Shown: positions 35,046-52,611 of the stretch, in pieces | How positions within the stretch are numbered: the stretch's first letter is position 1 | How the letters are laid out: each line of letters opens with the position of its first letter | Source of the DNA: Candidatus Omnitrophota bacterium | Lineage (GTDB): Bacteria; Omnitrophota; Gorgyraeia; Gygaellales; Profunditerraquicolaceae | DNA: 64,000 nt | Reading direction: 5' to 3' | Assembly: GCA_016208765.1 (NCBI GenBank) | Contig: JACQXK010000038.1 | Span: forward strand, 14,955-78,954 | The notes under the pieces: model-generated | Databases searched by the model: none | Seen by the model: the letters and a program-made list of their open reading frames with translations, nothing else | What the model was told of the DNA's origin: nothing | Made by a program: the position numbers and the translations under genes

Positions 35046-35087
35046 ATTTTTAAGTGGCAAATACTTTTTGAAACTGTTTAGGATTTA

Positions 35088-36186: not shown

Positions 36187-37074
36187 TTAGAACGCCCCCT
36201 TGGGAATTAATTCCCCCTCGGTAAATTTAATAATGATCGGCCCGGCAACCACAATCATAACCGCCGGCAAAATACAAAAAATCAAAGGAAAAAGTATTTT
36301 TAGGGATGCCTTGATTGCGTATCTTTCACCAGCCTCAAAACGCATAGTGCGCGTATCTTCAGAAAGGTTCTTAAATGTTTCCTCAATGGGAGTACCCATT
36401 CTTTCAGACTGCACTACCGAGCGCACAAAACTATTTACCTCGGGGATATTTAATCTTCTTGCCATATCCTTTAATGCCTCAGCGCGGGTTTTACCCACCT
36501 GGACCTCGCTTAACACCACGCCAAGCTGTTCAATAAAGGGATTATATTTACTTTTCTCAACCACCCATTTTATAGCCGAGAGAAAATCAGCTCCGGCGCT
36601 CACACACATATCCAAAAGGTCAATCGTCTCCGGGAAAATACGCACAATATCCTGTTTTTTCTTTTTGAATTTATTAAGCATGATCGCATCCGGCACAAAA
36701 AAACCAAAGAAAACCCCCAATAAGCCGTACAACACAGAAATAAACGTAGTGGCAATAACACCGCAAAGGATCGCTAATGCCAATTTAAAAAAAACTAATG
36801 CATACACGTTCATATCAATACGCAAAACCTCAGACTGCTGTTTTAATTTTTTAATGTACTGCAGATGAGAAAGCGGCTCAATAATAAAGTTAAGCGGCTT
36901 TAAGAAATTATCAAGCGAACCAGCCATGCTAAACGGCTTCTTCATGGCAGCTGCCATAGAATTCGGCTCGGTAATAAAATATGTGCGGCGCCTGCCCATA
37001 CCGGAAACAATGGATATAAGCAGGTAAAAAACTATAGCCAAAACCATAAAAATCACCACTAAATATATTGTCAT
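36187..37074 (-). CDS. tadC: Tad pilus inner-membrane platform protein TadC (GspF/T2SSF family)
   Basis: 295 aa, polytopic, T2SSF-like. Adjacent to tadB. Confidence 0.75.
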   Translation of the reverse strand: MTIYLVVIFMVLAIVFYLLISIVSGMGRRRTYFITEPNSMAAAMKKPFSMAGSLDNFLKPLNFIIEPLSHLQYIKKLKQQSEVLRIDMNVYALVFFKLALAILCGVIATTFISVLYGLLGVFFGFFVPDAIMLNKFKKKKQDIVRIFPETIDLLDMCVSAGADFLSAIKWVVEKSKYNPFIEQLGVVLSEVQVGKTRAEALKDMARRLNIPEVNSFVRSVVQSERMGTPIEETFKNLSEDTRTMRFEAGERYAIKASLKILFPLIFCILPAVMIVVAGPIIIKFTEGELIPKGAF

Positions 37075-37135
37075 ATCCTTCTTTCTATTGATCCTTAAGT
37101 CGGCCGAAGGCCTCCTTCAGATGACGGTAGCGCAA

Positions 37136-37993
37136 CTACATCTTAATCGTACTGATCTTTTTAATTAAGAACATTCCCACTATCTGCAGCCCAACCGCAG
37201 TCATCAAAAGTTTTTTCCCGGTTACAGTAGAAAGCATCACGTCAAAATGCTCAGGATTCTGCCGGTAAATAATGTAAGTAAAGACAAATGGCAAGAACAT
37301 CATGATTATACCCTGAAGCTTTCCCTGCAGCGTAAGGGTAGCGATTTTTTCCTTTAATTTAATATTGCTGCGGATAGTATCCACCAAGCGCGCTAAAACA
37401 TGAGGCAATTCTCCTCCTGATTCGCGAGCGATCAAAATTGAGGTTACCAGAAGATTGACTTCGTCTATCGGGACCCTCTCCCTGAGATTTTTTAAAGATT
37501 CCTCAAGGCTGACGCCGAGGCGGTTTTCTTTAAGGATCAGGTTAAATTCCTGCGAAACAGGCGCGGGCATTTCTTCGCACAATACTTCAATTGCCTGCAC
37601 AAAGCTTAATCCTGCGCGGATAGACGAGGAAAGTATGCGCAGGGTATCAATGAGTTGGCCGCGGAATTTCTTCAGTCGCTGTGCGCGGGCGATCCTTAAA
37701 ATTACCTGCGGAGCAATCAACCCTGCGACAAACCCTGCGGAAAGCACAATGGGGTTCCTGGCAATCAAAACAAAGGCAGCCCCGGCAAAAACCAAAGGCA
37801 GGAAAGAAATCAGGAAAATCTTGCGCTTCTCCCAAAAAAGAAATGATTCTTCAAGCTGGGCGGAGAATTGCTGGGTCCTGCGCTCATGCATTTTTTGGTA
37901 AAAGTCAAGCAGCATCGGGACGATGCTTTCAGATATAATATATGTGATGATAAAAACAGCGAAGAAAATAAACAGAAAAAGAAAAATTTCCAT
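37136..37993 (-). CDS. tadB: Tad pilus inner-membrane platform protein TadB (GspF/T2SSF family)
   Basis: 285 aa, T2SSF-like. Operon context with flp and tadC. Confidence 0.75.
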   Translation of the reverse strand: MEIFLFLFIFFAVFIITYIISESIVPMLLDFYQKMHERRTQQFSAQLEESFLFWEKRKIFLISFLPLVFAGAAFVLIARNPIVLSAGFVAGLIAPQVILRIARAQRLKKFRGQLIDTLRILSSSIRAGLSFVQAIEVLCEEMPAPVSQEFNLILKENRLGVSLEESLKNLRERVPIDEVNLLVTSILIARESGGELPHVLARLVDTIRSNIKLKEKIATLTLQGKLQGIIMMFLPFVFTYIIYRQNPEHFDVMLSTVTGKKLLMTAVGLQIVGMFLIKKISTIKM

Positions 37994-38002
37994 AACTATA
38001 GT

Positions 38003-38203
38003 TTATTCGTTTCCGACCTGCGAGTCAACTGTTGTTTTTTCCGGCTCATAAACTTCTCCCTGCCCGAAGGTATCGGCAGTATCGCGGATCTTTGAGGTAA
38101 GGGCGTTCTTGATATATTGCCCCATAATGATAATTGCCGCGATAATTACCGCGAAGACAACGGCAAACTCAATAATGGACTGGGCTTTATTTTTCCTGGA
38201 CAT
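38003..38203 (-). CDS. flp: Flp-family type IVb pilin (flp7), about 66 aa
   Basis: ATG at 38203 preceded by AGGTG. MSRKNKAQSIIEFAVVFAVIIAAIII carries the Flp motif (G/A)QS(I/V)(I/V)E(Y/F) plus a hydrophobic helix. The track ORF is extended N-terminally. Confidence 0.75.
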   Translation of the reverse strand: MSRKNKAQSIIEFAVVFAVIIAAIIIMGQYIKNALTSKIRDTADTFGQGEVYEPEKTTVDSQVGNE

Positions 38204-39029
38204 AAGACACCTGCACAAAAGAACCCTGGCCTTCCTGGCCATAGTTGTTATTAAACACAGAAACTTCCGCCTTACCGGAAGAAGATTTAAATTTTAATAT
38301 ATATCCTCCTTCTACCAATTGAGGAATTGTTATCCCGCTTAACGGCAGTTGCGGGGCATTCTTCATCGCAGGCAGCCTTTCTGCTTCACGATATGCTTCC
38401 TGCATATCTATAGGCTCTTCAGCTTCCCAACCCAAGGCCAGCATTTTATGCCGGTAAAAGTTCATCAAATCCTTGCTGGATTCTTTACTGGAATAAAATA
38501 TAAAGGTAAGCTGGTTGTTCTTATTGTAAAGAACCCTTATGCTTTCCGGAGGGCGGGGTATAAAATCAAGGTCCTCTCCGGCAACGTCTTCTTTGGGCAA
38601 ATACCCCTGCGCATTTTTCCAGTTGCGCAGCAATTCTTCCGGGCCGGGGGCGTTTTGCGGCTGGAGGTATTGCGCGATTACCACCTGATTTTTACCCTGC
38701 TTTGGGGTAATCACAATATTTACCACTAAATCTTCTTTTCTAAAACGCAGTAACCTGCCGATTTTTCCCGCCCTATCCTGCACAGGTTCAAATTTACTTT
38801 TCTTAAAATAATCTTCATAAAATTTATTAATGGTTTCTTCTTCAGCCTGCGACTCAAACAAGAATGACATGATTTTCATTCCCTCAAGCTGTGTTTGATG
38901 CGTATCCAACATAACACTTTGAGGAGGAACAGGAACAGACAGCTCATCCTGAGAAAAAACAGGGTCTGTAGCTGTAAATAATAAAAATAAACACACAGCT
39001 AAAAATCTAAAGACAGTTTTAATACGCAT
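38187..39029 (-). CDS. Secreted protein of unknown function (signal peptide MRIKTVFRFLAVCLFLLFTATDPVFSQ)
   Basis: ORF track entry. Lies in Tad locus context. Confidence 0.6.
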   Translation of the reverse strand: MRIKTVFRFLAVCLFLLFTATDPVFSQDELSVPVPPQSVMLDTHQTQLEGMKIMSFLFESQAEEETINKFYEDYFKKSKFEPVQDRAGKIGRLLRFRKEDLVVNIVITPKQGKNQVVIAQYLQPQNAPGPEELLRNWKNAQGYLPKEDVAGEDLDFIPRPPESIRVLYNKNNQLTFIFYSSKESSKDLMNFYRHKMLALGWEAEEPIDMQEAYREAERLPAMKNAPQLPLSGITIPQLVEGGYILKFKSSSGKAEVSVFNNNYGQEGQGSFVQVSYVQEK

Positions 39030-40293
39030 GTGTCAATTTAGTCTCAAACAGGTGGCGCTCCGTATCAAAGAAGCTCCAGTCACTGCCCTTGCAGCCGAAA
39101 ATATTAGTGATCAACTGCCCGGGATTGAACTGCGGCCTGATTGTTTCTTCATCATCTAAATCCGTATGCTCCCTGAAGGCAACGCCAACCCCCGAAGCTG
39201 AAACTTCTCCGTACCTTAATTTCCAAACTCCCAGGTCTTTTGGCTTTTTGTAACGAGTAACCTTGACCACCAGCGGATTATCATCTGTCTGCGCTTTGGT
39301 GCGGTCTTTTAACTCCAGCCCGGCAAAGTCTATACCGGTAGGCATAAACTCTGTCATACCCTTTACAATTGCCTTAGTAGTCTCAATAATAAATCCAAAC
39401 CCAAGCCATTCTAAATACCAGGGAATACTTAAATTTCCTGTTATGAAATTTAAAAGGCAATTCAAGATTTCTGCTATCCAACTATAGAAATTAATCGCAT
39501 AAGTACCGGCGCCTGTAACCTGCACTTCTATCCAATTTTCATAATTCTTATAACTGTCTCCATTACTATAACTATTTCCTCCTCCTGATGACTTATCATT
39601 CCATCCATAACCGGAATTAACCTCAGCCTCGCTATAATCACCCGGCTCTACCTTGCCAAAGCTATCGCGCCAATAACCATTATGTATATCTTGCATAAAA
39701 TTAGAAAACCCGCTTCTGGCATACCTGACTGCGCTTCCTGTTTCACCTTTCATATATTCATCATAATATATGCGCAATTGATCGTTAGTCAACTTTTCAG
39801 GCGTTGTTTTGTACGCGTTGGATAAAAAGCTTTCAAAAGTAGGCTGAGGCTCTTCAACACTAATATTATTAAATGCGTATTGAACTGCGGTTTTCTTGGC
39901 ATTAGTCCAGCCCATATTTGAATCACCCATCGCATGTAACAATTCAATGAACATGTTAATAAAAAACGCTACGGCCAATATAATTACTATTACCCATCCT
40001 AAAACAGGTATGCATGCGGAAATAATTATTGGGATAATTACCTCTGTTGCCCTACCGGACATCATGTCGCTTTTTAAGCCAAGCCCAAGGAGCGTACTGC
40101 TTAACACGCTCGCGCCTGAAAGCGCACCCGCATCAGCGGCATTTGATACCTCAGTCTTAAATATGCCTAACTGCCCCAGATTAAGCGTGATCATTGCCAT
40201 TACCAAAAACACCGCGATGACGGCCACAAGAAAAGGAAACACCTGCCCCTTTTCATAATGGTTTTTATTCTGGGAGAATTCCTTAAATATCAT
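39019..40293 (-). CDS. tadG: TadG-like Tad pilus assembly / minor pilin protein
   Basis: N-terminus ...GQVFPFLVAVIAVFLVMAMITLNLGQLGIFKTEVSNAADAGALSGASVL resembles the TadE/G N-terminal helix plus the NAADAAALAGA motif. Confidence 0.55.
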   Translation of the reverse strand: MIFKEFSQNKNHYEKGQVFPFLVAVIAVFLVMAMITLNLGQLGIFKTEVSNAADAGALSGASVLSSTLLGLGLKSDMMSGRATEVIIPIIISACIPVLGWVIVIILAVAFFINMFIELLHAMGDSNMGWTNAKKTAVQYAFNNISVEEPQPTFESFLSNAYKTTPEKLTNDQLRIYYDEYMKGETGSAVRYARSGFSNFMQDIHNGYWRDSFGKVEPGDYSEAEVNSGYGWNDKSSGGGNSYSNGDSYKNYENWIEVQVTGAGTYAINFYSWIAEILNCLLNFITGNLSIPWYLEWLGFGFIIETTKAIVKGMTEFMPTGIDFAGLELKDRTKAQTDDNPLVVKVTRYKKPKDLGVWKLRYGEVSASGVGVAFREHTDLDDEETIRPQFNPGQLITNIFGCKGSDWSFFDTERHLFETKLTHAY

Positions 40294-40329: not shown

Positions 40330-42084
40330 TTATTGAGCAATAGGAGTTAAAGCCTGAATACACGCTGCGCGCTCAGCCTGTGTCGGCTTCAGGCAACATT
40401 TTCTATATTCTTCTTTTTGGTTAACAACTTTCTTGCCGGCCTCTTCAATTATATTTGCGCTTCTATACGACAAAAGGTATCCTAACATATAGTCTGCACC
40501 GACGAAAAATGGGTCTCCGGGGGGACAGGGTTGATACAGCCATTGCCAATCGCACCATTGATGGCATTGTGCTTCTGAATTAAATATGGGAGATGCGCCA
40601 AGAGCGGCGAAACACCACCGAAAACCAAACCAAGGATCTTCTATCCAGATTTTGCACCATTGATACCTGCCCCCGCCAACTTCTTTACAATTTTGTTTCG
40701 GATGATTTGCCCTCCACGGGATTGCGCATTGCGCTTCGGTAAAATTCTCATCTTGCCTGCCATCATTACAAAAGTCACAGGCCATGCCGCTGTTTTCTGC
40801 TGCGCAATTCAGGCATTTAGCCCTGTTTCCCGCGGCGAGCGCCCCGCATCTTTGACAGGAAACAATGTAAGCATTACAAGCTGCTGCATTACATCCGGCT
40901 TCAAATCCGGAAAAACAAGTTTTACAAGATACGGGGCTATTTGCACAAGTTTTACAATCATTATTCAACTGAACCTTGTTACAGTTTAAATCACTGCCGC
41001 AGTAAGTTGAAATCGCCCCGTCAAACGCAGCTGAAGATTGGGCGCCGCAAACACATTGGCCAAAGCACCCGCAATTAACGTTAAAAGTATTAACAGTTAA
41101 ACCGCATCCTTCTTTGCCCAAACAAGATTGTTTACAATCTTCACCGGGCTCAAAAGGAGTAATGCTATAAATCCTTTTATTTATGGAATCCTCGCATGCC
41201 TGTCGCAGCCCCTGATCAACAATGTGTGAGCACATACATTGGGCCTGTTCTTCAACCGACCGATAGCTGCTGCAACGGCACTCAAGCTGCTTCTGCGGGT
41301 TATCCTCTTTCACATTACAAAAACATCTTTGCTGATCCGCAAAAGTTGCCTGGCTGCAACAACCGACCATGCCGTCTCTTTTCTGTTTAAGTTTGGCGCC
41401 TTCAGTTTCAAACTTAGAGGCCAGATCCCAAAGCTTGTGTGCTGCCTTTTTCAATTCACTGGCGGTTTTACCCCAATTACCCCACCAACAGATTTCCCAC
41501 GGGTCATCGCATTGGCTTGCCTTATCCCACATACTATTGGCGTTTCGCCAAAAATTACAGGCCATCCCGTCTCCGCAGCGATTTCCCCCGATTTTTCCGC
41601 AATCCTCATTCTGCCCGCAATATTGTTTCACCTGATTAGTCAGGGCATTTACCATCGGCTGAACCCTTGACAGACAGATACAACGGGTATAACAAGGACA
41701 CTCCTTATTAAATTTTCCATCTTTATCAAAACAGGCTTGATCATTATTACATTGCTCAAGGCACTCTGAGGGGCTGAACCCGCCGCCCTCAAATAAACCT
41801 TTACTCCAGGCATCAACCTGTTGCCCGGGTTCTCCCTTAAAGACCCACTCCTCGGTTAATTCCAAAGGCCTAAAAGGCACAACACTAACAAGATCTGTTT
41901 TTTGTTCCTGAACGGCAGGTGTCCCTGCCTGAAGGCGGGTTTTTTGATAGATGACATCGCGCGCGGCATAATTGGCATTAAACCAAACCATGACCCTCGC
42001 TATGCCGATTACCAAAATAAGAATGCCGACAAAAGTAAAAACAAAATCCAGTATTGACTGGGATTTCTTTTTATTCATTGGCAT
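40330..42084 (-). CDS. Cysteine-rich (about 75 Cys) pseudopilin-like protein with a Flp/TadE-type N-terminus; candidate pilus tip adhesin
   Basis: N-terminus MPMNKKKSQSILDFVFTFVGILILVIGIARVMVW (pilin-like KSQSILDF + TM), followed by about 520 aa with dense C-x-x-C / C-x(3-6)-C spacing. Confidence 0.6.
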   Translation of the reverse strand: MPMNKKKSQSILDFVFTFVGILILVIGIARVMVWFNANYAARDVIYQKTRLQAGTPAVQEQKTDLVSVVPFRPLELTEEWVFKGEPGQQVDAWSKGLFEGGGFSPSECLEQCNNDQACFDKDGKFNKECPCYTRCICLSRVQPMVNALTNQVKQYCGQNEDCGKIGGNRCGDGMACNFWRNANSMWDKASQCDDPWEICWWGNWGKTASELKKAAHKLWDLASKFETEGAKLKQKRDGMVGCCSQATFADQQRCFCNVKEDNPQKQLECRCSSYRSVEEQAQCMCSHIVDQGLRQACEDSINKRIYSITPFEPGEDCKQSCLGKEGCGLTVNTFNVNCGCFGQCVCGAQSSAAFDGAISTYCGSDLNCNKVQLNNDCKTCANSPVSCKTCFSGFEAGCNAAACNAYIVSCQRCGALAAGNRAKCLNCAAENSGMACDFCNDGRQDENFTEAQCAIPWRANHPKQNCKEVGGGRYQWCKIWIEDPWFGFRWCFAALGASPIFNSEAQCHQWCDWQWLYQPCPPGDPFFVGADYMLGYLLSYRSANIIEEAGKKVVNQKEEYRKCCLKPTQAERAACIQALTPIAQ

Positions 42085-42183: not shown

Positions 42184-43008
42184 TTATTCCAAAGATGTTT
42201 CCCAAGTCTTCTGCCTGACAATTTTATTATCTACTTTGTCTTTGCTGTATTCCGCGGTAGTGCGGACCAAACGCCCGGTATCCGGGTCTCTCTCTTCTTT
42301 GCTGGATACGCCAAAACTATAAGCTGCAGGCTGAGCATTATATTCATACTCAGGAAGCTTTCCTTGCTCCCATGGTTGCTTATCATCCCACGGCTCTTCA
42401 TCTACAGCCTTATCAAAACGGGTATAAATCTTAGTTTCAATATTACTTGTCAGCTCGGATTTTTTACTGGTTCTAATCCCGTTACCAGCAGGAAGATTTT
42501 CCTCCCGCTTGGCATACGAATCATATTTCTCAACAACGCGTCTTTCTTCCTTCCAAATACTCTCCGGAGCTGTAATCTCGCGTTTGCTGCCGTCAAATCC
42601 TACAACTTCTTTCTTCTTACGGGCAAGGCCGGTATCAGCATTACCGAGCGGCTGGCCGTTGATTTCATAAAACGCGTAGGAAGCATCATTGTCAACACCC
42701 TGCGGCCCCGGCATTCCCTTTTGCCACATCAGGCTTGCTGATGCTCCTATTGTTGAAGGCTGCCCCTGGCCAAAACCACCTAAAAGATTAAAAAAACGTG
42801 CGTCCTTTTTTATTGTATATGAAACCGTGCCGTTTTTTTCGTAGGCTTTTTGCATTGCTATGCGAAAGGCGTCCATTTTAAGCTTCTGCTGCATTTCAAG
42901 CCTCTGGCCGAAACTTAATAAAAGCGAAGCGCCTAACAGCATCATGCTGCTAAGCACCGCTAATTCCACTACTGACTGTGCCTTCGCATTGCGAGAATAT
43001 ATTTTCAT
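42184..43008 (-). CDS. tadE: TadE-like pseudopilin
   Basis: MKIYSRNAKAQSVVELAVLSSMMLLGASLLLSF has the prepilin-like motif plus a hydrophobic helix. Confidence 0.6.
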   Translation of the reverse strand: MKIYSRNAKAQSVVELAVLSSMMLLGASLLLSFGQRLEMQQKLKMDAFRIAMQKAYEKNGTVSYTIKKDARFFNLLGGFGQGQPSTIGASASLMWQKGMPGPQGVDNDASYAFYEINGQPLGNADTGLARKKKEVVGFDGSKREITAPESIWKEERRVVEKYDSYAKREENLPAGNGIRTSKKSELTSNIETKIYTRFDKAVDEEPWDDKQPWEQGKLPEYEYNAQPAAYSFGVSSKEERDPDTGRLVRTTAEYSKDKVDNKIVRQKTWETSLE

Positions 43009-43050: not shown

Positions 43051-43551
43051 TTACCCTCCTAATTTGTCATTAACATCGCTGCTTAAATTATTGCGCAGAG
43101 CGTCTACCTCATCCCCAAGATCTTTCTTCGCAGGAAGAGCGTGATTATCTACAGAATATGCTCTGAGCGCTGAACGAAAATCTTCTCCAACAGCAACGCT
43201 CAGGCTATGCTCAGTGTTTCCGACTGAGGAAGAAAAGCTGATATTCCGAGGAGAAGATGTCTCGGTTAATTGCGTATCCTGCTTATTCTGGCTCACAGAT
43301 TTAGTTACCACAGAATCATCGCCTTTATACTGCTGAGTGTCCTGCCCCCACCTGCCCCAGAAACAATAATCCGCGCTTGCTGCGACTTTTGCGCGCAGAG
43401 AGCGGGAAACTATCTTCTGGGTAAAAAGCCAACCCATTGACAATACCGCCAAAACCGCTACCCACATACTAAGGCTTTGGCCGCAACGGCTGTTAAATAA
43501 CTTATTTTTCGTCAGCAAAGGCATCCACCCCCTCTGTCTTACTAAAAGCAT
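43051..43551 (-). CDS. Minor pilin-like protein (weak prepilin motif RCGQSLSMWVAVLAVL); start uncertain (43551 or 43524)
   Basis: ORF track entry. Overlaps the 3' end of flp6 in another frame. Confidence 0.4.
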   Translation of the reverse strand: MLLVRQRGWMPLLTKNKLFNSRCGQSLSMWVAVLAVLSMGWLFTQKIVSRSLRAKVAASADYCFWGRWGQDTQQYKGDDSVVTKSVSQNKQDTQLTETSSPRNISFSSSVGNTEHSLSVAVGEDFRSALRAYSVDNHALPAKKDLGDEVDALRNNLSSDVNDKLGG

Positions 43552-43834
43552 TGGTGGTTTGGCTCTGAGTTACAGTCATCCCAAGAGGAATATTATCGCT
43601 CTCAACACCGGTCCTGGAATCAGAATAGGTAGAGGTTTTTGTAATTGTGGTAGAGGCAGTATGCCCGGGGGAATATTGCATCCCGACTTCATCTACCTCT
43701 CTTTTGATCCTGCCCTCATAACACCTCTTTACATAAAACTGCATGATCATCAGTGCGCTGAGGATCAGGCAGAACAATACCGTATATTCTACAATGCTCT
43801 GCCCGATCTTAGACTTTTTCAATGCGCGAAACAT
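43502..43834 (-). CDS. flp: Flp-family pilin with C-terminal extension (flp6, 110 aa)
   Basis: MFRALKKSKIGQSIVEYTVLFCLILSALMI. RBS TCAGGAGGC. Confidence 0.8.
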   Translation of the reverse strand: MFRALKKSKIGQSIVEYTVLFCLILSALMIMQFYVKRCYEGRIKREVDEVGMQYSPGHTASTTITKTSTYSDSRTGVESDNIPLGMTVTQSQTTNAFSKTEGVDAFADEK

Positions 43835-43860
43835 AACTCAGCCTCCTGATAAAAACGATA

Positions 43861-44298
43861 TTACTTGGCGTATTCGCCCGATAAATCTTCTGCGTTTTCC
43901 GCAGTATATTCAGACCAACGAGTCTTTTCCTGGTTAGCTGAATCAGTTGAAGACTTCGTAGCCATTGTCATTTCTCCGCCTGTCCTCTGATTAACAGAAT
44001 AAGTATCCTTCTCCAAAGTATTGACTGACGCATCTATTCCTTCGGGAAGAAAATCTCCGATCGCACCAGTTGTAGCAGAAGCATCAACTATTTCCTGAGG
44101 GCTATTCATTGTCCTTTTATTAAGGACAGTGGTCCCTCCTGCAGAAAACTGCTCGCCCATTTTATCCGCAGATTCCTTAAGGTTACCCTGGAACCCTCTT
44201 TTTACAAACACCTGCATGATCAAAACTGCAGCCACGACCACACCCAACAAAACTGCATATTCAAGTATTGACTGACCTCTATTACGTTTATTAAACAT
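43861..44298 (-). CDS. flp: Flp-family pilin with C-terminal extension (flp5, about 145 aa)
   Basis: MFNKRNRGQSILEYAVLLGVVVAAVLIM. GGGAGGTG lies upstream of the ATG at 44298. Confidence 0.8.
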   Translation of the reverse strand: MFNKRNRGQSILEYAVLLGVVVAAVLIMQVFVKRGFQGNLKESADKMGEQFSAGGTTVLNKRTMNSPQEIVDASATTGAIGDFLPEGIDASVNTLEKDTYSVNQRTGGEMTMATKSSTDSANQEKTRWSEYTAENAEDLSGEYAK

Positions 44299-44326
44299 CT
44301 TACCAATCACCTCCCTTTAAATAAAG

Positions 44327-44704
44327 TTATTCTGCCGCATCCAGAGTTTCAATGCTGACTGCGCTGGTTGTAGTAGTCTGGCTCTGTTCACGATCTTCCT
44401 TGCCGCCTTTATGCAGAATGCTCTTGTCTACAAAAGTCTTATCATCAACGGTTGTTTTACGCAAATCCTGGGTATACAAAGATTGATCGCTACCTGAAGT
44501 GCTGTAGCTGGACAAATCAAAATCTGAATCGTTCGCCTTATCTTCTTTTCCCCCGGCTTGCTGCAAGAAATTCAATGACTGCGTGCTCTTATCGCGTATG
44601 CCGCCTTTTAAGGCCACAGACAAAAATCCTGCCGCAACTGCCACCACCAATCCTAATGTAATCGCGTATTCTGCTGTTGATTGCGCTCTTTTACTTAAAA
44701 ACAT
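44327..44704 (-). CDS. flp: Flp-family pilin (flp4, 125 aa)
   Basis: MFLSKRAQSTAEYAITLGLVVAVAAGFL. RBS GAGGAGGTGAGC. Confidence 0.8.
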   Translation of the reverse strand: MFLSKRAQSTAEYAITLGLVVAVAAGFLSVALKGGIRDKSTQSLNFLQQAGGKEDKANDSDFDLSSYSTSGSDQSLYTQDLRKTTVDDKTFVDKSILHKGGKEDREQSQTTTTSAVSIETLDAAE

Positions 44705-44727
44705 TTTTGCTCACCTCCTCTTAAATT

Positions 44728-44916
44728 TTATTCTTTAAATATACCTGTTGTTAAATCATTGGTCGTGTTTTGAATGGCATCTCCCGCCTTATCATATGCG
44801 CCCTTTATTTTCGTTTTAACTCCTCCGAACAACGCCACAACAATTACAGTGATCACCGCGCCCAATAACAGAGTGTATTCCAAGATGCTCTGGCCTTTCT
44901 TAAAATCACGTCTCAT
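44728..44916 (-). CDS. flp: Flp-family pilin (flp3, about 62 aa)
   Basis: ATG at 44916 preceded by GAAGGAGGTGA. MRRDFKKGQSILEYTLLLGAVITVIVVALF. Confidence 0.8.
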   Translation of the reverse strand: MRRDFKKGQSILEYTLLLGAVITVIVVALFGGVKTKIKGAYDKAGDAIQNTTNDLTTGIFKE

Positions 44917-44975
44917 TTTCTCACCTCCTTCACAATAAGTGAACACTTGCCTATCCAATAAGGCAAGGTGCCTTT

Positions 44976-45119
44976 TTATTTTAATTCGTCCTGAATCTGT
45001 TTAATTCTTGCGTTCATTGAACGATATACATAACGCTGCGTAATTAACAGTGCCCCGGCCACTACGGTAAACAATAAAACAAACTCAATAATACTTTGTG
45101 CTCTTTTATTCCTAATCAA
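44976..45119 (-). CDS. flp: Flp-family pilin missing from the ORF track (flp2, 47 aa, TTG start)
   Basis: Hand translation: (M)IRNKRAQSIIEFVLLFTVVAGALLITQRYVYRSMNARIKQIQDELK*. GGGGGTG lies 5 nt upstream of the TTG. An upstream in-frame TAG rules out a longer ORF. Confidence 0.6.
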   Translation of the reverse strand: MIRNKRAQSIIEFVLLFTVVAGALLITQRYVYRSMNARIKQIQDELK

Positions 45120-45291
45120 CTTGCACCCCCATAAATGCTGCTATGGTCTGAAAATGATTCTCAAACACATTATTCTTTGTTTTTAGAAGAAAATCAGTGC
45201 TTACTAAGGCAATCACAGCTACTGCTGCCAAAAGCAGATATTCTACGAAAGATTGTCCAATCTGGTTTCTTAAAGACTTTTTAAATTTCAT
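45112..45291 (-). CDS. flp: Flp-family pilin (flp1, about 59 aa), first gene of the pilin array, under promoter/leader L3
   Basis: ATG at 45291 preceded by AAGGAG. MKFKKSLRNQIGQSFVEYLLLAAVAVIALV. The track ORF 45112..45444 reads through the leader. Confidence 0.75.
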   Translation of the reverse strand: MKFKKSLRNQIGQSFVEYLLLAAVAVIALVSTDFLLKTKNNVFENHFQTIAAFMGVQVD

Positions 45292-45302
45292 TAGTATCTC
45301 CT

Positions 45303-45489
45303 TAAATAAAAAACCGACGTCTCTTTTACTTTCAAAGAAACCTCGGCTTTCGGTAACCCGGCTAATGCTCTCGCTCTTGACCTTAAAGCTTAAAGCAATG
45401 AAGACAAATCTTGCGAGCGTCATCCCGTGGCTTTGCGCATCCACCCCTCCAAGAGTGGAATTGCCTTTTCGTTGCCGCCCTTCAACTAC
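45303..45489 (-). promoter_or_regulatory. Leader L3 upstream of the flp array, sharing the 3' half of the L1/L2 leader
   Basis: Sense strand: ...GCGCAAAGCCACGGG...GCCGGGTTACCGAAAGCCGAGG...GACGTCGGTTTTTTATTTAAGGAGatactaATG. aaataaaaaaccg matches L1 exactly over 13 nt. Confidence 0.45.
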
Positions 45490-45495
45490 ATCATA

Positions 45496-45524
45496 AATAT
45501 AACATGCACAAACATGGGTGTCAA
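45496..45524 (-). promoter_or_regulatory. Sigma70-like promoter of the flp array (TTGACA, 17 nt spacer, TATATT)
   Basis: Sense strand: TTGACAcccatgtttgtgcatgtTATATT. An ATGTCC half-site abuts the -35. Confidence 0.5.
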
Positions 45525-45555: not shown

Positions 45556-47370
45556 CTAAACCTGAAACCAAATTGACTTGTTGTCACAAGACTTAATCTC
45601 ACGCTCATTTAACCTCAGGCAGGCGTATTTGAGCTCCCTTAAATAGCGAAAACCCTGCGCAGGCTTAAAAATATAAATTAAATCATTGCCTTTGTGCTCA
45701 ACATGCACTTCCATGGAGTAAAACTGCTCTTTTACCGTCGGAAAATCAATATTTTCCGCGCCGGCAGGAAAAAAATACCTTTTAAAATATGCGTCTAATG
45801 CCAAAAGATACTGATTAAACAAGGTTAATGTGTCACTCTTCACATATTGCTGCAGGCTTAATGATTCTGCAGAAAAACCCTGCTGCGAACTTGCCGTGTA
45901 AGTAAAAAATTCTATTTTACGCTGAAAGTCCTGCAGGCCTTCTTCAAAATTTGGCCAATGCTCCAGATAAAGCACAGCCAGATCTTCAATTTTAATCTCT
46001 TCCGGAGCAATATTTGAAAGAATAAAAAGGCGAGGCTTATCCGAGAGGGAGTTTTGTAAAACGCACCCTCTTAATGTAACATTATGCGTTGCATGTGGTT
46101 GCGATAGGCTGACTTCAATTGGAGCAAGAAAATATTCCTTATTTAGGGTGCTAAAATAATATGGCCTAAATTCCCCTGTTTTCTTTATCTTTCTATAACC
46201 ACTGTATTGCCAAGGCCATAGCGCAAGAATAAGCCTTCTTTTTTGCGGTTTCATGGTGAAGATCTCCAGCTCATCCAAACGGTTGCCATAAAAAGTTAAT
46301 GAGCGGATTTGCTTTTGCTGGTTTTCTAAAGCCAAAAGAAAATTCAAGAATTCAACTGGTAAATCTTCCCCTCCAGGGCAAGAATAAAAAACAAGCGGCT
46401 CATTTTCAAAGAAATGCCTGTTTATGTAATTCTTTGCAGCCAAAAGAGTTGTGCCAAAATCATAAGGCACATATGCTGCCGACCAAACTGTGCGTAACTG
46501 CCCGTCTAAATACAGGCTCTGCCCGTCTGAAAGCACAACCTTGATACAACGCACAGGCTCAAAGGTATTAACGATCGTACGAAACACATCTATATTAATT
46601 TCTTTAACCGTTTGGATACTATCAAGATATGCGTTAATTTCCTCCTGGGAGAATTGCTTTCCGGTTAGATTTGCTGCTAAAGAAAGCCTTTCATAAGATA
46701 AATTTGCCAAACCTTCTAATTGCAAGTAAATTACGCTTTCAGTAATTAGCGAAAAATCACCTGAGACAAGTTTTATCCTGCGCTTGATCACCTCGGCAAT
46801 ATGTTTAGAGCCTTGCAGGAGATAATCCATGGCTTTCAACAAGATCAAACCATTCAACAGGATTTCTTTTTGCGGTTTTATTTCAGGCAGCACCTCTGGT
46901 ATTTCTGCCACGGGGGTTTGCTCAGTAACAGATTCTCCGACGGGAATCTTTTCTTTTTCACCGGTTATCTCTATGGGCAGGTTTATTTCTTCAACAGGCT
47001 TTAAAGGTACAGCTGCTTCGGGCATAATTACTGTTTCTTCTGGTTTTGCCTGCGCAGCAACCGGCATGATTTCTATTGCCGGCTCGGCTTTTACTTCATC
47101 GGGCTGTTTCAAAATGCCTTTTAAGTCATCCTGAGAGAGGGCATTGGCCGGCCGAAGGATCTTAACTCTGCGGCGCTTACAAGGCCTTCCTACCGGCATG
47201 CTTAAGCTGGCATTCTTAATGATAAAATTAATACTTGATTTGGAAAGCTTAATATTAAATTTGTGCTGAACCAAAGAGGTGAGGCCACGGCAGCTCAGAG
47301 AATGATCATTCTTTTTTTCCTCTAAGACGAAGCTGATTACCTCTGATTTAATTTTGTAGATTACGCCCAT
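45556..47370 (-). CDS. 604-aa protein with N-terminal helix-turn-helix (transposase-like HTH, ...SMPVGRPCKRRRVK), Pro/Glu-rich linker and a large C-terminal domain; candidate locus regulator
   Basis: ORF track entry. RBS GGAGAGAG. Its promoter is bracketed by AGATTGGACATTT sites. Confidence 0.5.
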   Translation of the reverse strand: MGVIYKIKSEVISFVLEEKKNDHSLSCRGLTSLVQHKFNIKLSKSSINFIIKNASLSMPVGRPCKRRRVKILRPANALSQDDLKGILKQPDEVKAEPAIEIMPVAAQAKPEETVIMPEAAVPLKPVEEINLPIEITGEKEKIPVGESVTEQTPVAEIPEVLPEIKPQKEILLNGLILLKAMDYLLQGSKHIAEVIKRRIKLVSGDFSLITESVIYLQLEGLANLSYERLSLAANLTGKQFSQEEINAYLDSIQTVKEINIDVFRTIVNTFEPVRCIKVVLSDGQSLYLDGQLRTVWSAAYVPYDFGTTLLAAKNYINRHFFENEPLVFYSCPGGEDLPVEFLNFLLALENQQKQIRSLTFYGNRLDELEIFTMKPQKRRLILALWPWQYSGYRKIKKTGEFRPYYFSTLNKEYFLAPIEVSLSQPHATHNVTLRGCVLQNSLSDKPRLFILSNIAPEEIKIEDLAVLYLEHWPNFEEGLQDFQRKIEFFTYTASSQQGFSAESLSLQQYVKSDTLTLFNQYLLALDAYFKRYFFPAGAENIDFPTVKEQFYSMEVHVEHKGNDLIYIFKPAQGFRYLRELKYACLRLNEREIKSCDNKSIWFQV

Positions 47371-47797: not shown

Positions 47798-47823
47798 ATC
47801 CTTCGCTCGTTCAGGATGACGTC
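47798..47823. repeat. S-element copy 3 (reverse orientation) spanning the tadZ-tadA stop codon
   Basis: gatccttcgctcgttcaggatgacgtc. Confidence 0.6.
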
Positions 47824-49967
47824 TTAAAGACATCATCGGACAAAGCAATGCCTTTAATTTTAAGCTCTTGCACAAATGGAGGGATGTAACCGGTAGCCGT
47901 AAAATTTCCTAAAACCTTGCCCTGATTGTCAACGCCGGTCTGACGAAAATTAAAAACGTCTTTTAAGCCGATATGTACTTCGTCTTTCATGCCGCTCAAC
48001 TCTGATATTTGTATTATTTTACGCGTCCCGTCGCTAAGGCGGGCAGTGTGCACAATAATATGCAATGCAGAAGCAATCATCTCACGAATAGCCCTGATCG
48101 GAAGCTCTACTCCTGACATAAGGATCATAGAATCAAGCCTGACTAAAACATCCTGCGTAGAATTAGCATGCACAGTCGTCATAGAGCCGTCGTGGCCTGT
48201 GTTCATTGCCTGAAGCATGTCCAGGGTTTCTGCGCCGCGGCACTCTCCTATAACAATTCTATCGGGGCGCATACGCAGAGTGTTACGAAAGAGTTCACGG
48301 ATAGAAATCATCCCTTTCCCTTCAATGTTAGGCGGACGCGACTCTAACCTGATCCAATGCTCCTGGCTTAATTTAAGTTCAGCCGCATCTTCAATAGTAA
48401 CAATTCGCTCGGTATTTGGGATAAAAGCTGAGAGGATATTTAAAACCGTAGTCTTACCCGAACCCGTCCCACCGGAAACAATAACATTCTTTCTGGCGAC
48501 AACACACGCCCTGATAAAATCTGCCATTGCCTTACTAACAGAGTTCATGGCGATTAATTCTTCTATCTTAAATTTTTCTTTTCTAAATTTACGGATCGTC
48601 AGCGTCGGCCCGGTAAGCGCCAAAGGCGGGATAATCGCGTTTACGCGCGAGCCGTCGGCAAGGCGGCTATCCACCATCGGCACAGATTCATCAATGCGCC
48701 GGCCGGTAGGAGCAATGATACGCTCAATAATCGTTTTTACCTGATCATTAGAAATAAACTTTTTGCTGGTCAGCTCTATTTTTCCATGACGCTCAATATA
48801 CACTTCATCTTTGTTATTAACCATGATGTCGGTAATGCCGGGGTCTGCCAAAAGGTCTTCTAAAGGGCCCAACCCAAGCGCCTCATCAACTATTTCCTTG
48901 ATAAATTTGTTGCGCACCTCCATAGAAGAAATAAAACTGCCGGCCTCATCGGTGAGTAAGTTAGAAACAATTACTTCTGCTTTCTTCCTAAGCTCATGTT
49001 TTTTCACCGCGTCGCTAAAGATCTTGACGTCTAGCCTTTTAATATTCATTTCATCAATCAGGCGGTTATGGATCCGGCGTTTGATCAAAAGCACCTGATC
49101 GGTTTCTGCTGCCACCTCTTCCTCTTGCCCGGCAACGCTAACACCGAATTCTTTCCAAAATGCCGCAGGCTTCTCCAACTGCTCCTTACCTGCCTCAAGA
49201 GCCCCGATCTCTCTGTGAGAAGTATATAATCTTTCTTCAACGATAAGTTTGTGCGCGAATTTCTTGATTGCCTGAGAGATGCCGGATTTAGGCACATCTA
49301 CCACTACCGGAACGCGGCGGTTAATAGAAAGCCCGACGATTTTACCCTCTGAGGGCAGTGCCGCAATAATCTCGCTGGACAAATTAACCTGCAACTCTTC
49401 AAGGCTGATACTTGAAACAGATTCTGAACGGTTAATCACCACCTTGATCATCGTCAAAGGAAAATGCATTGACTGCAAAGTATCCACAACCCACTTCGTC
49501 TGGTATACAGATAAAATATCCGGAGTTACCAAAAGAAGGATCAAGTTTGACTGATTAATTGAACGCATAAATATTTCATTAAAACTCTTACCGGCATCAA
49601 TTACAACATAATCATAATCGCTGGCATATAATTTAAAAATTGTATCAATGCACTCAGGAGGCAAAATCGCGGCCTGTTGCGGTTTTAAAACCGCAGGAAG
49701 GAAATCAAAACCAAAAGCAGTATGCGTAATAAATGCCTGCTTTTCCGCATCAGCCTTTTGTCTTTTAATGGCTCCGGAGATATCAATCATTGATTTTTGC
49801 GGGCCAAGATTAAGCATCCTTGACAGATCCCCTACACCCTGCAAATCAAAATCCATTAACAAGACGCGTTTTTTCTCGTCGCGGGAAAGGCTCGCGGCAA
49901 GATTAGAGGCGACAAAGGTTTTACCCACTCCACCTTTTGTGCTGAATATTGATATTACCTTAGACAT
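47811..49967 (-). CDS. tadA: Fused TadZ/CpaE-like (MinD/ParA-type) N-terminal domain + TadA/CpaF secretion ATPase
   Basis: N-terminus MSKVISIFSTKGGVGKTFVASNLA (deviant Walker A). C-terminal part VSGGTGSGKTT...DRIVIGECRG...TGHDGSMTTVHANS (VirB11/CpaF Walker A, Walker B, His box). Confidence 0.8.
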   Translation of the reverse strand: MSKVISIFSTKGGVGKTFVASNLAASLSRDEKKRVLLMDFDLQGVGDLSRMLNLGPQKSMIDISGAIKRQKADAEKQAFITHTAFGFDFLPAVLKPQQAAILPPECIDTIFKLYASDYDYVVIDAGKSFNEIFMRSINQSNLILLLVTPDILSVYQTKWVVDTLQSMHFPLTMIKVVINRSESVSSISLEELQVNLSSEIIAALPSEGKIVGLSINRRVPVVVDVPKSGISQAIKKFAHKLIVEERLYTSHREIGALEAGKEQLEKPAAFWKEFGVSVAGQEEEVAAETDQVLLIKRRIHNRLIDEMNIKRLDVKIFSDAVKKHELRKKAEVIVSNLLTDEAGSFISSMEVRNKFIKEIVDEALGLGPLEDLLADPGITDIMVNNKDEVYIERHGKIELTSKKFISNDQVKTIIERIIAPTGRRIDESVPMVDSRLADGSRVNAIIPPLALTGPTLTIRKFRKEKFKIEELIAMNSVSKAMADFIRACVVARKNVIVSGGTGSGKTTVLNILSAFIPNTERIVTIEDAAELKLSQEHWIRLESRPPNIEGKGMISIRELFRNTLRMRPDRIVIGECRGAETLDMLQAMNTGHDGSMTTVHANSTQDVLVRLDSMILMSGVELPIRAIREMIASALHIIVHTARLSDGTRKIIQISELSGMKDEVHIGLKDVFNFRQTGVDNQGKVLGNFTATGYIPPFVQELKIKGIALSDDVFKTSS

Positions 49968-49970
49968 AAT

Positions 49971-51647
49971 TTACTCTAACTGATAGGAAATCGGGATATC
50001 CACCCATAATTCTTTAGTGCCGATTGTCGTAGGAAACGGAGGATACTGAGAAATCTGTTTTGCAACTTTTAAAGCGTTATCGTCAAGTATTTTATAGTTT
50101 GAGGAATTCTTAACCACGGCATCCAGCAAATCACCTTTGTAAGAAATAAGCAGGCTCAGTTGCACTGTCCCTTCAAACCCGGATTGCTTTGCTTGGGCAG
50201 GATAGGCTAAATTCTTCATAATCTTTTGTTTGATTATGCCTGTGTATTTTGCAACAGGGTCTAACGCATACTCGTCTGCAACTTCAACTGTAGAAGCAGC
50301 TTTTTTTGCCTGCTCCATGCTAATATCCATTTGTTTTGCATCTGGGGTTAACGGTTGTTGAGGTTTTTCGGCATCTGCAGGCTGCTCCTCGGTTTTCTTT
50401 TCCAAATAAGGAGTTTCCCTGCTGACAATCGTCGGGGTAATGATAATATATAATTCGGTATCTGCTTTCTGCCCTGTGCCGCCGCCGGTCTTGGTTACTC
50501 TTTTTCTAAAAGCTCCCCCAACCAAAGGAAGGTCCCCGAACCAGGGAACCTTGGTTACCTGTTCCTCGGTTTTCCTGCGCATCAGGCCGCCGATGGATAA
50601 TGTCTGCCCGTTCAACAGGAATAGCTCTGTTGAGGCATTGCGCTTGGTTAATGGGAATGCCTTTGCAGTAATGTTGGTCGCTGTGCCAAGAGTTTCCGCC
50701 TCGCCGTAATCGCTAACCTCCATTTTCACTCCCAACTTAATACGGTCATCGGGCATTACTGTTGGTTTCATCTTAAGCTTAATCCCAAATTCTTTATACT
50801 CAACTTCTGTGCCGGAAGAACCTGCTGTCGCCGCCACAGAAGTAGTGAGCACGGGCTTTTCTCCTCCGACGAGCAATTCAGCTTCTTTGCCGCTTTGACA
50901 GGCAAGCCGCGGACGGGAAAGAATCTTTGCCTTACCCTCCTCTATTAAAGCATCCAGCTTTAAGGTAAATGCGCTGTCTCGCTTAACATTTAAAAGCCTG
51001 AATACATTAGAAAATGCCGTACCACCAGCAGCCAAACCCGGAGAGCCTACTTCAGTAAGACTGACAGAACTCGGCCAGGTAACTCCGAGAGTTTTGCTTG
51101 CATCCTGATCAAGTTCTAAAACCTGCACATCAATTTCTACCACAGATTCTTCTTCGCGGACAGTAGTCAAATTTATTGTTTTTGCCATTAAAGGGCCGAG
51201 CGCCAAAGAAATTTTTTTAATGTCATCGTCGCTTTTTACCCTGCCTAAAAGCATTACCTTGCCTTCCTCATCAGAATCCTTTGTATATACCTCGGGAAGA
51301 TCTAAAGTTTCGAGCATGCTGTCTATTCTACGTTTAATATCCTTCATATCTTCTGTATAGACCCTTATTTCCTGTGACTTTTCTCCGGAAGCATCCCAAT
51401 AAAAAAGAGTAGTTGTGCCTCGGCCTTTGGCAGCAACAATGATAGTATCTTTGCTGACCTCTACCACATCAATTACCTGAGGGTTAGAAATTACTATTCT
51501 CGTCGGGTTAGAAGCAGAAATAGGCCGCGTGTCTCCGACATACATAACAAATTCCTCGCCTGATTTATCCGCAGCGCCCAAAACGCCAAAACAACATAAA
51601 ATTGCAAACCCCGACACAATAAAACTCTGCAAGATTCTTTTTGTCAT
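49971..51647 (-). CDS. cpaC: Tad secretin (RcpA/CpaC family) with C-terminal TonB-C-like domain
   Basis: Secretin core ...TLSIGGLMRRKTEEQVTKVPWFGDLPLVGGAFR...ELYIIITPTIV. C-terminus YPAQAKQSGFEGTVQLSLLISYKGDLLDAVVKNSS...LDDNALKVAKQISQYPPFP matches the TonB_C pattern. Confidence 0.75.
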   Translation of the reverse strand: MTKRILQSFIVSGFAILCCFGVLGAADKSGEEFVMYVGDTRPISASNPTRIVISNPQVIDVVEVSKDTIIVAAKGRGTTTLFYWDASGEKSQEIRVYTEDMKDIKRRIDSMLETLDLPEVYTKDSDEEGKVMLLGRVKSDDDIKKISLALGPLMAKTINLTTVREEESVVEIDVQVLELDQDASKTLGVTWPSSVSLTEVGSPGLAAGGTAFSNVFRLLNVKRDSAFTLKLDALIEEGKAKILSRPRLACQSGKEAELLVGGEKPVLTTSVAATAGSSGTEVEYKEFGIKLKMKPTVMPDDRIKLGVKMEVSDYGEAETLGTATNITAKAFPLTKRNASTELFLLNGQTLSIGGLMRRKTEEQVTKVPWFGDLPLVGGAFRKRVTKTGGGTGQKADTELYIIITPTIVSRETPYLEKKTEEQPADAEKPQQPLTPDAKQMDISMEQAKKAASTVEVADEYALDPVAKYTGIIKQKIMKNLAYPAQAKQSGFEGTVQLSLLISYKGDLLDAVVKNSSNYKILDDNALKVAKQISQYPPFPTTIGTKELWVDIPISYQLE

Positions 51648-51657
51648 TATTTTTCCT

Positions 51658-52611
51658 CTATTTATTGGATAAAGGCATTCTTTCTTTGTTTAAGCCCCGA
51701 TAAATCTCTACGAAACCTTTTTCTTCCCGCGGCTTTTCAGCTTCCACGTTAGAAGGAGTTATATAATTTAACAAGGTATCCCAATCAGCCGGCTTGGTTT
51801 TGTCAATCTGGGTATCTCCCGGAGAGCGCAGCACCAGCCTGATTTTTCCTTGTTCGTTAACAAACGATATTAAGTTCGCCTCTTCCGGAGAAAGCGCCAA
51901 TGTAATTAAAGGTGAAATGTCTTTCTTTTTGTCGCTGCCTTTGGATTTAAAAATCATTCCTGCTTGCGGAGATAAAATTTCATCTCCAACTGCCAGCACT
52001 AAAACGTTTTGAAATAAAGGCACAGTGCTTTTATCTTTTTGCTTTTCATTATCTTTTACGCCCATTGGCCCGCTGTTAGGCAGGGCAATAATAGCAATCA
52101 AATCCACAAAATCACCCGGCTTAATCATTCCTGCCAAAGAAGAGATATTGTCTACCGAAATCGTGATCGCCCTTTTCCCTGCGGGAGTAACTTCGGCTAA
52201 TCCGCTTTCTTTTTGGGTATATTTTTGCTTTCCGCCACCTTCTATCTGCGTGACCTTATTTGCAGTGATCTGTTCCCCTTTTAAAATATCTTCAATAACA
52301 CCCATTCCCGCTACTGCATCCATAGCTGTTGCCGCATTAGGACGGACATATTTTTCAGGGATTACTTGCGCAACAACCATAGAAGGATCTATAACTGTGC
52401 CGCGCGGAAGATCCTTATTTGCCACCAACACTGCCACCATAGAAGATTGTAAACGCTTAAATTCTTCTTTAGCGTTCTCTGTAACTTTTTTCTTTTCAGT
52501 CTCTATTAGATACTTGACCGTAAAGACAGTAACCACTGCCAAGACGATACTGATCAACACCATCGGGATTTTTTTCTGCATATTCTGCATATTATTTAAT
52601 TTCTCCCTCAA
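51658..52611 (-). CDS. cpaB: Flp pilus assembly protein CpaB/RcpC
   Basis: N-terminal TM followed by ...DLPRGTVIDPSMV... (SAF/CpaB). Operon position. Confidence 0.65.
   Translation of the reverse strand: MREKLNNMQNMQKKIPMVLISIVLAVVTVFTVKYLIETEKKKVTENAKEEFKRLQSSMVAVLVANKDLPRGTVIDPSMVVAQVIPEKYVRPNAATAMDAVAGMGVIEDILKGEQITANKVTQIEGGGKQKYTQKESGLAEVTPAGKRAITISVDNISSLAGMIKPGDFVDLIAIIALPNSGPMGVKDNEKQKDKSTVPLFQNVLVLAVGDEILSPQAGMIFKSKGSDKKKDISPLITLALSPEEANLISFVNEQGKIRLVLRSPGDTQIDKTKPADWDTLLNYITPSNVEAEKPREEKGFVEIYRGLNKERMPLSNK

Follow-up and report, generated by a model that had tools for sequence, protein, structure and literature searches.

We analysed a stretch of 64,000 nucleotides (nt) from a Candidatus Omnitrophota bacterium (GenBank assembly GCA_016208765.1, contig JACQXK010000038.1, positions 14,955 to 78,954 of the forward strand), referred to below as the window, and we focused on an array of small pilin-like genes within a Tad pilus locus. 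Six co-oriented pilin genes (p1 to p6) were found in tandem at 45291-43502, and a seventh (p7) lies apart from them at 38203-38003. Positions are those of the window, and all of its features described here lie on the minus strand. An earlier note on this DNA, made from the sequence alone, had described six tandem flp pilin paralogs plus a seventh, and the coordinates of the open reading frames (ORFs) bore this out (59, 47, 62, 125, 145, and 110 amino acids (aa) for p1 to p6, and 66 aa for p7). It had also counted four long C-terminal extensions, of which we found only three (those of the 125-, 145-, and 110-aa proteins).

The array starts with p1 (45112-45291; 59 aa; HY761_06795), which has the leader MKFKKSLRNQIG and a mature start QSFVEY, and which is the type least conserved between genomes. 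Its end overlaps by 8 nt with p2 (44976-45119; 47 aa; HY761_06790), and a spacer of 59 nt separates p2 from p3 (44728-44916; 62 aa; HY761_06785). These are followed by p4 (44327-44704; 125 aa), p5 (43861-44298; 145 aa; HY761_06775), and p6 (43502-43834; 110 aa; HY761_06770), with spacers of 23-28 nt that hold a Shine-Dalgarno sequence only. A strong Shine-Dalgarno sequence is present ahead of each of p1 to p6. The remaining gene, p7 (38003-38203; 66 aa; HY761_06740), is directly upstream of tadB and is conserved in the related loci L083 and L084. In GenBank, p1, p2, p3, and p7 are all named 'hypothetical protein', and p5 is identical to the protein HY761_06775 of a 'Candidatus Omnitrophica bacterium' metagenome-assembled genome, encoded on a contig of 79.5 kb. 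Contigs that are identical to this DNA or closely related to it occur in the metagenome runs SRR12113402, SRR12113406, and SRR12113407.

All seven proteins have the same N-terminal organization, in which a basic leader of 7-12 residues is followed by G or A, Q, a near-invariant S, two aliphatic residues, E, Y or F, and about 20 hydrophobic residues. The earlier note had proposed such a shared motif with a hydrophobic helix, and in the N-terminal alignment that it asked for, the Q and the E were invariant in p1 to p7. The residue at position -1 is G in p1, p3, p5, and p6 (G-QSxxEY) and A in p2, p4, and p7 (A-QSxxE[Y/F]). When a regular expression for the motif and helix was run on the six-frame translation of the window, it gave nine matches, against 0.01-0.03 in shuffled sequence. 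All nine came from the minus strand, within the interval of 38-45.3 kb, and the two beyond p1 to p7 corresponded to a 274-aa protein (x8) and a 584-aa protein. Across these nine N-termini, K or R occupies position -2 in seven, position -1 is G in four, A in four, and S in one, and Gln is at +1 in every case.

The shortest gene, p2, had been described as having a TTG start, a full motif, and a Shine-Dalgarno sequence, and each of these elements was recovered (GGGGGTG, 5-6 nt ahead of the TTG). It had also been described as absent from the ORF track. It was indeed missing from the length-limited ORF list, but GenBank annotates it (MBI4707615.1). The start codon is TTG in the clade of the window and ATG in more distant relatives, with a G-rich Shine-Dalgarno sequence in every case. 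Gene callers reported p2 on two independent Logan contigs and in L084, and its orthologs were called in L086 and L087. In L083 (7223-7378) and L085 (3112-3309) the ortholog is intact but uncalled, and the L083 call stretched the next gene to 78 aa. An exhaustive phmmer search of 1.84 billion representatives returned 44 cluster representatives for p2 at E <= 1e-3, most of them 47-70 aa long and matched over their full length; it was used because a word-indexed homolog search had, owing to its index limit, given only one cluster for p2 (and two for p6). The family consensus reads KKAQSIxEY...RSxNARLKQxQxEL, and RSMNAR[IL]KQxQ[DE]EL is the conserved C-terminal motif of p2. In comparison with L084, a 78%-related genome, we counted 16.5 synonymous and 2.5 non-synonymous differences, that is, a ratio of non-synonymous to synonymous substitution rates (dN/dS) of 0.02. 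Judged by this sequence conservation, p2 is a genuine and strongly constrained gene.

The array is enclosed by a Tad locus for which a Pfam scan identified a complete gene set of RcpC, secretin, TadZ-TadA, and TadB/C. The gene order is RcpC/CpaB, secretin, TadZ-TadA, a DUF192 protein, a 604-aa protein, the leader and pilins, a TadG-like protein, p7, TadB, and TadC, and it is repeated in L083, L084, L086, and L087, which comprise other Omnitrophota contigs and one complete 1.28-Mb genome. RcpC/CpaB (51658-52611) matched Pfam RcpC. The secretin (49971-51647) matched Pfam Secretin together with T2SS-T3SS_pil_N, a Tad/RcpA-type N-domain, and it is fused to a C-terminal TonB_C domain (E = 1.4e-16), a fusion that is kept in L083, L084, and L086. 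The 718-aa ATPase (47811-49967) is a TadZ-TadA fusion (Pfam T2SSE with a ParA-like N-terminus), with full-length matches across many phyla. The synteny of RcpC, secretin, and TadZ-TadA is likewise kept in L083, L084, and L086. TadB and TadC (36187-37993) are two single-domain T2SSF platform proteins (E = 4.9e-21 and 1.4e-15), and the 424-aa TadG-like protein (39019-40293) matched Pfam Tad PF13400 (E = 2.2e-5; 25.1 bits against a cut-off of 22.3). The 604-aa protein (45556-47370) had no Pfam match, and its position between the DUF192 gene and the pilin leader is conserved; since its L086 ortholog weakly matches HTH_32, it may regulate the pilin array. At the head of the locus lies a SurA-like peptidyl-prolyl isomerase (Rotamase_2; 52592-53509), and such an isomerase has been described as conserved beside giant genes (West-Roberts et al.). 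Tad complexes in Omnitrophota have been reported before (PMC10066038).

A single regulated leader ahead of the pilins had been anticipated as well, and the sequence upstream of p1 is indeed a predicted riboswitch of the cyclic di-GMP (c-di-GMP) class I type with a terminator. It begins with a sigma-70-type promoter (45496-45524; -35 TTGACA, a 17-nt spacer, and a TG-extended -10 TATATT; 11 of 12 consensus positions); in L083 and L084 the spacer sequence varies but neither hexamer does. Promoter-like matches within the array were no commoner than in shuffled sequences, so that only one strong conserved promoter was found. The aptamer (GEMM-I, RF01051; 45349-45475) scored 40.2 bits against a gathering score of 35, and its counterparts in L083-L085 scored 42.2-42.4 bits. 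It kept a G at the column that we take to be Vc2 position G20, and a 3' ACC at what is presumably C92. In Vc2 numbering, G20 and C92 are ligand-contact nucleotides of c-di-GMP-I aptamers (PMC6140456). RNA folds placed an intrinsic terminator at 45303-45351 (a 17-pair hairpin and a U run), with an AAGGAG Shine-Dalgarno motif and the start codon of p1 behind it. The leader retains 96% identity between genomes that are nearly saturated at synonymous sites, and only two terminator substitutions were seen in relatives, at the loop and at an unpaired stem position. The terminator hairpin overlaps no paired aptamer position, and the folded aptamer and the terminator can therefore coexist. The terminator 5' arm AGCCGAGGUUUC mimics the aptamer P3 3' strand AGCCGGGUUACC and could thus rival it for pairing with the P3 5' strand in the ligand-free state. 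Modeling of co-transcriptional folding gave two candidate anti-terminators, one of which loses strength through a substitution that L083 and L084 carry. Given the separate terminator and its P3-like arm, the pilin leader would seem to be an OFF switch, with the ligand favouring termination.

We then considered to which pilin family the window proteins belong. When 22 N-termini of Omnitrophota were aligned by hhalign, profile to profile, with 32 Flp candidates taken from other Tad loci (five of these candidates were confirmed as Pfam Flp_Fap), the probability was 96.8% (E = 2e-10) over 50 aligned columns, with the cleavage Gly and the Glu-Tyr in register, and the window pilins are therefore remote Flp homologs. 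The flp identity given in the earlier note thus holds in the sense of Flp-like (type IVc) genes inside a Tad locus, as supported by the Pfam-identified neighbours and by hhalign. Canonical Flp pilins from other loci (n = 5) scored 32.2-65.8 bits against Flp_Fap. The best sub-threshold matches of the window pilins were to Class_IIIsignal and TIGR04205: p2 and p3 reached 16.1 and 17.1 bits against Class_IIIsignal (PF04021; cut-off 23.7), which the other pilins did not match, and p7 reached 22.4 bits against TIGR04205 (cut-off 65). None of the window pilins matched Pfam Flp1_like, and the Integrated Microbial Genomes (IMG) system labels several homologs 'UPF0333 family'. Pilins of this GQ type with a basic leader also occur in Bdellovibrio-like and Elusimicrobia loci and in one unclassified locus, where they match Class_IIIsignal or Flp1_like and stay below the Flp_Fap cut-off. 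With a reported Flp size of about 44-68 residues (PMC6916266), p1, p2, p3, and p7 are within the range (47-66 aa) and p4, p5, and p6 are beyond it (110-145 aa). On sequence grounds, we file the window genes as a divergent Flp-related subfamily and not as members of Pfam Flp_Fap.

The extension of p5 was followed up through its homologs. A search with p5 gave 68 matches of 92-167 aa, most of them 140-150 aa long, with an identity of 42% or more and a query coverage of no less than 86%. The protein carries a MQxFVKRGxQG motif, and its C-terminal part has the conserved motifs GEQFSAGGTT, YSxxxRTGG, and TDSAxxEKxR. Since near-full-length homologs keep motifs through this part, the extension is a real domain. 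Three larger genes directly follow the array, with the gene of the TadG-like protein (40293-39019) beyond them, and these were not part of the earlier note. The protein x7 (43051-43524; 157 aa) is a degenerate pilin-like protein with G-QSLSMW, no Glu at +5, and positional orthologs in L086 (g7) and L087 (h12), and x8 (42184-43008; 274 aa) is pilin-like with A-QSVVEL and ortholog scores of 342 (L086) and 284 (L087). The third is a Cys-rich 584-aa protein (40330-42084) with the N-terminus KKS-QSILDF, which is conserved in L083 and L084 and is a candidate pilin-fused tip adhesin.

We consider it probable that the array encodes, as one operon behind a c-di-GMP riboswitch, the subunits of a Tad (type IVc) pilus of the Omnitrophota type, and that these subunits are fixed and non-interchangeable. 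The single promoter at about 45524-45496 would drive a leader with the c-di-GMP-I aptamer and the intrinsic terminator, and because the leader holds both elements, c-di-GMP would set the amount of transcript reaching the pilin genes. Each of the genes behind the leader would be translated from a Shine-Dalgarno sequence of its own; in gene order these are p1 to p3, p4 to p6, the larger proteins of 157, 274, and 584 aa, the TadG-like protein, and p7. Each precursor would be cut after the Gly, Ala, or Ser ahead of the invariant Gln, by a prepilin peptidase that is presumably encoded elsewhere in the genome. The N-terminal helices would pack into a filament built by the TadZ-TadA ATPase, TadB/C, RcpC, and the secretin. 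In such a filament the short pilins would be the likeliest bulk subunits, and the longer ones would most likely act as minor, priming, tip, or surface-decorating subunits.

Several results weigh against this interpretation. None of p1 to p7 matched Pfam Flp_Fap (PF04964) even at E <= 1, and in scans of the pilins against Pfam, NCBIfam, and PHROGs no curated model reached threshold. An AlphaFold model of p5 from a 51-sequence alignment, with a helix at residues 11-51 and four strands, was of low confidence (predicted local distance difference test (pLDDT) score of 65, in a range of 55-66); the helix itself exceeded a pLDDT of 90 over approximately residues 11-30 and fell to about 63 by residue 50. 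When this model was compared with the PDB by Foldseek, nothing was found below E = 2, and PDB sequence searches with paralog, p5-family, and p2-family profiles gave chance-level matches only, the best pilin-related ones being Geopilin (E = 0.83) and Caulobacter PilA (8u1k; E = 1.6). No A24 domain or GxGDxK motif of a prepilin peptidase was found in the window or in eight related loci, and the gene on which the processing of the pilins relies must lie in another part of the genome. Finally, the aptamer precedes the array only in the clade of the window (L081-L085), and none was found ahead of the L001, L086, and L087 arrays at permissive thresholds. The riboswitch is thus a clade-specific add-on and not part of the core system. 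Between the DUF192 gene and the pilin-array promoter of L001 (11094-11200) there are two tandem palindromic elements of about 35 nt (cagtagggtgggtttaaacccaccctactgttgaa), for which Rfam gave only a sub-threshold, chance-level match.

Alternative explanations of the array were weighed against this background. Tandem paralogs in such number would also be expected if they were alternative major subunits used one at a time, that is, for pilin switching or antigenic variation, which the earlier note had suggested beside mixed filaments, and the two- to threefold duplication of the p3, p4, and p5 types in L087 and L088, with hypervariable middles, looks as if an exposed surface were diversifying. 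The paralogs of the window share only about 23% mean column identity, however, and models of switching by recombination or inversion were dropped because a search of the array for DNA repeats and inverted repeats gave only short chance matches. No recombinase is nearby, and all genes share their strand and a single strong upstream promoter, and their translation is either coupled or led by a Shine-Dalgarno sequence. Moreover, every type has a conserved positional ortholog under purifying selection. Cross-genome score matrices were diagonal, such that p1 to p6, x7, and x8 each had their best match at the same position in L086 (with scores of 153, 265, and 249 for p3, p4, and p6, respectively; p4 scored 211-221 with its three copies in L087), one-to-one positional orthologs persisted at 43-49% identity, and every type was recognisable in L087. 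In comparison with L084, dN/dS was 0.10, 0.02, 0.03, 0.15, 0.19, 0.13, and 0.09 for p1 to p7, at dS values of 0.76-1.39. The orthologs are all intact in six related arrays (L001 and L083-L087), and the pseudogenised paralogs that would have spoken against the claim of the earlier note were not seen. The low identity, the lack of DNA repeats, and the one-to-one positional orthologs indicate that the paralogs are fixed, non-redundant subunits, and we regard switching as very improbable. The surviving reading would be that of mixed filaments with major and minor pilins.

It is also conceivable that the pilins form a short pseudopilus like that of a type II secretion system (T2SS), which would push the neighbouring giant proteins out of the cell like a piston, or offer them a conduit, instead of forming an external adhesive pilus. 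Giant ORFs do flank the locus (>8943, 2504, and 3229 aa), T2SS pseudopili typically comprise many minor-pilin-like proteins, and one riboswitch family precedes both the pilins and two of the giant genes. Nonetheless, we find this possibility unlikely. The components are of the Tad type (RcpC, TadZ, two single-domain platform proteins, and an RcpA-type secretin N-domain), and among the locus proteins scanned there was no T2SS-specific Pfam family (GspC, L, M). The pilins have Gln at +1 throughout and no G-FTLxE motif, and they gave no match to Pfam N_methyl at E <= 1. In addition, L086 has the pilin array, yet the 7 kb downstream of it hold housekeeping genes and not giant genes. A third possibility, that the short ORFs encode small membrane proteins with no connection to pili and share their N-terminus only as a membrane anchor, would explain why no curated pilin model was matched at threshold. 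We consider it extremely improbable, given the profile-level Flp homology with the processing motif in register, the invariant Gln and Glu where a class III signal would have them, and the strict co-location of the array with Tad machinery in every related locus.

An expanded version of the array was observed in L087 (3626-11406) and in the same region of L088, where at least 12 pilin-like genes are present, with the p3 type in two copies and the p4 and p5 types in three copies each. Copies of the same type have near-identical leaders, conserved C-terminal parts, and hypervariable middles, and they are separated by spacers of about 160-410 nt. The hypervariable middles of these duplicates suggest, at the level of sequence, that the p3, p4, and p5 types may be surface-exposed and diversifying in some lineages.

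The small hairpins between genes that the earlier note had pointed out were found in one spacer only. The 59-nt spacer between p2 and p3 folds into a hairpin (44943-44971), whereas the other spacers are of 23-28 nt or overlapping, with a Shine-Dalgarno sequence only. A 69-nt stretch with this hairpin has a predicted folding energy of -17 kcal/mol (z = -2.4). Its stem is invariant and its loop variable in L083 and L084, and in comparison with L084 about 5 of 60 spacer positions differ, far below the expectation at a dS of about 0.9. L086, L087, and L001, with spacers of only 11-19 nt, lack the hairpin. Without a U tract behind it, the hairpin does not qualify as a canonical terminator; it could plausibly stabilise the p1-p2 part of the transcript or tune the translation of p3.

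When compared with known systems, the window genes share with Flp pilins (Flp-1 and Flp-2 of A. actinomycetemcomitans and Caulobacter PilA, PDB 8u1k) the short prepilins, the G-xxxx-E-Y arrangement, and the hydrophobic helix, and TadA, TadZ, two platform paralogs, RcpA, and RcpC are together in one locus, as in Flp systems judged by type IVc criteria (PMC6916266). They differ from canonical Flp in several respects. The leader is short and basic, with the K or R at -2 in seven of nine, while canonical leaders are acidic there; Gln-Ser at +1/+2 is near-invariant, and Ala or Ser is tolerated at -1. Furthermore, three members of 110-145 aa have conserved C-terminal parts, at least ten genes are found in one locus, and there is no adjacent tadV. 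Bdellovibrio bacteriovorus (flp1-flp4) likewise combines several Flp-type pilins with a predatory or parasitic lifestyle (PMC5430801). Its four Flp genes, two of them in the tad operon and FliA-controlled, were described by Avidan et al. (2017, PMC5430801) as the largest complement of type IVb pilins known at the time, whereas here seven small or medium and three larger genes are present in one locus, with six in tandem behind a riboswitch. The TadB/C proteins of Omnitrophota cluster phylogenetically with those of Bdellovibrionales (PMC10066038).

Two further comparisons concern the leader peptide and the leader RNA. The N-termini of the window proteins resemble those of archaeal class III signal proteins (PF04021, UPF0333; Epd/Aap-type). 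Both follow the archaeal class III rule, by which position -2 is basic, position -1 is occupied by G, A, or S, and Gln and Glu stand at +1 and +5, respectively. In contrast to the archaeal proteins, the host here is bacterial, the machinery is a bacterial Tad system with an outer-membrane secretin, and the scores are sub-threshold. As for the leader RNA, the riboswitch of C. difficile pilA1 reportedly has a class II aptamer, precedes genes of a type IVa pilus, and acts as an ON switch, whereas the aptamer here is of class I, the pilus is of the Tad type, and the terminator is clear of the aptamer, pointing to OFF logic. What the two have in common is that a c-di-GMP riboswitch and its terminator immediately precede a cluster of pilin genes (Bordeleau et al. 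2015, cited in PMC6916266). In Omnitrophota papers and full-text literature searches, we found no report of a class I c-di-GMP riboswitch before a Tad pilin operon. The kind of pilus is known, and what sets this variant apart is how many conserved subunit types it has, its archaeal-like leaders and its long members, which standard models miss, and the class I riboswitch.

The giant genes beside the Tad locus comprise an ORF of more than 8943 aa that runs off the window (1-26829) and has a Peptidase_C39 domain within its first ~300 residues, an ORF of 2504 aa without a Pfam match (27546-35060), and an ORF of 3229 aa with HEAT repeats and LysM domains (54216-63905). Directly upstream of the first two, c-di-GMP-I aptamers were found at 26915-27056 (46.6 bits) and at 35121-35276 (35.6 bits), respectively. 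In both of these leaders the terminator 5' arm (26929-26919 and 35134-35124) is the aptamer's own P3 3' strand, and their modeled architecture would be of the ON type, opposite to that of the pilin leader. By our own mapping, the aptamer at 35121-35276 has an A instead of a G at the column that we take to be Vc2 G20. An A at this position marks GEMM-Ib aptamers that bind cyclic GMP-AMP (cGAMP) or are bispecific (PMC6140456). One might speculate that the three GEMM-I riboswitches, which lie within 20 kb of each other, put a single attack locus under the control of cyclic dinucleotides and do so with opposite polarity, such that Tad pili would be made at low messenger levels and giant surface or effector proteins at high levels, and that the filament would be a composite of about ten conserved subunit types with archaeal-style signal peptides and no described counterpart; we hold this extended scenario to be doubtful. 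A link between the pilus and giant-gene riboswitches was not mentioned in the Omnitrophota papers or full-text literature searches.

Omnitrophota are uncultured, ultra-small, and probably predatory or parasitic, and what their genomes reveal about how hosts are attacked comes mainly from the Tad machinery and the giant genes. The locus described here gives a parts list for the filament, with at least eight conserved subunit types, most of which are now annotated as 'hypothetical'. These proteins represent a distinct Flp-related subfamily that escapes standard pilin models, and pilin surveys will therefore undercount it. Altogether, the c-di-GMP riboswitches of the locus provide a testable regulatory link between pilus production and the expression of the giant genes.

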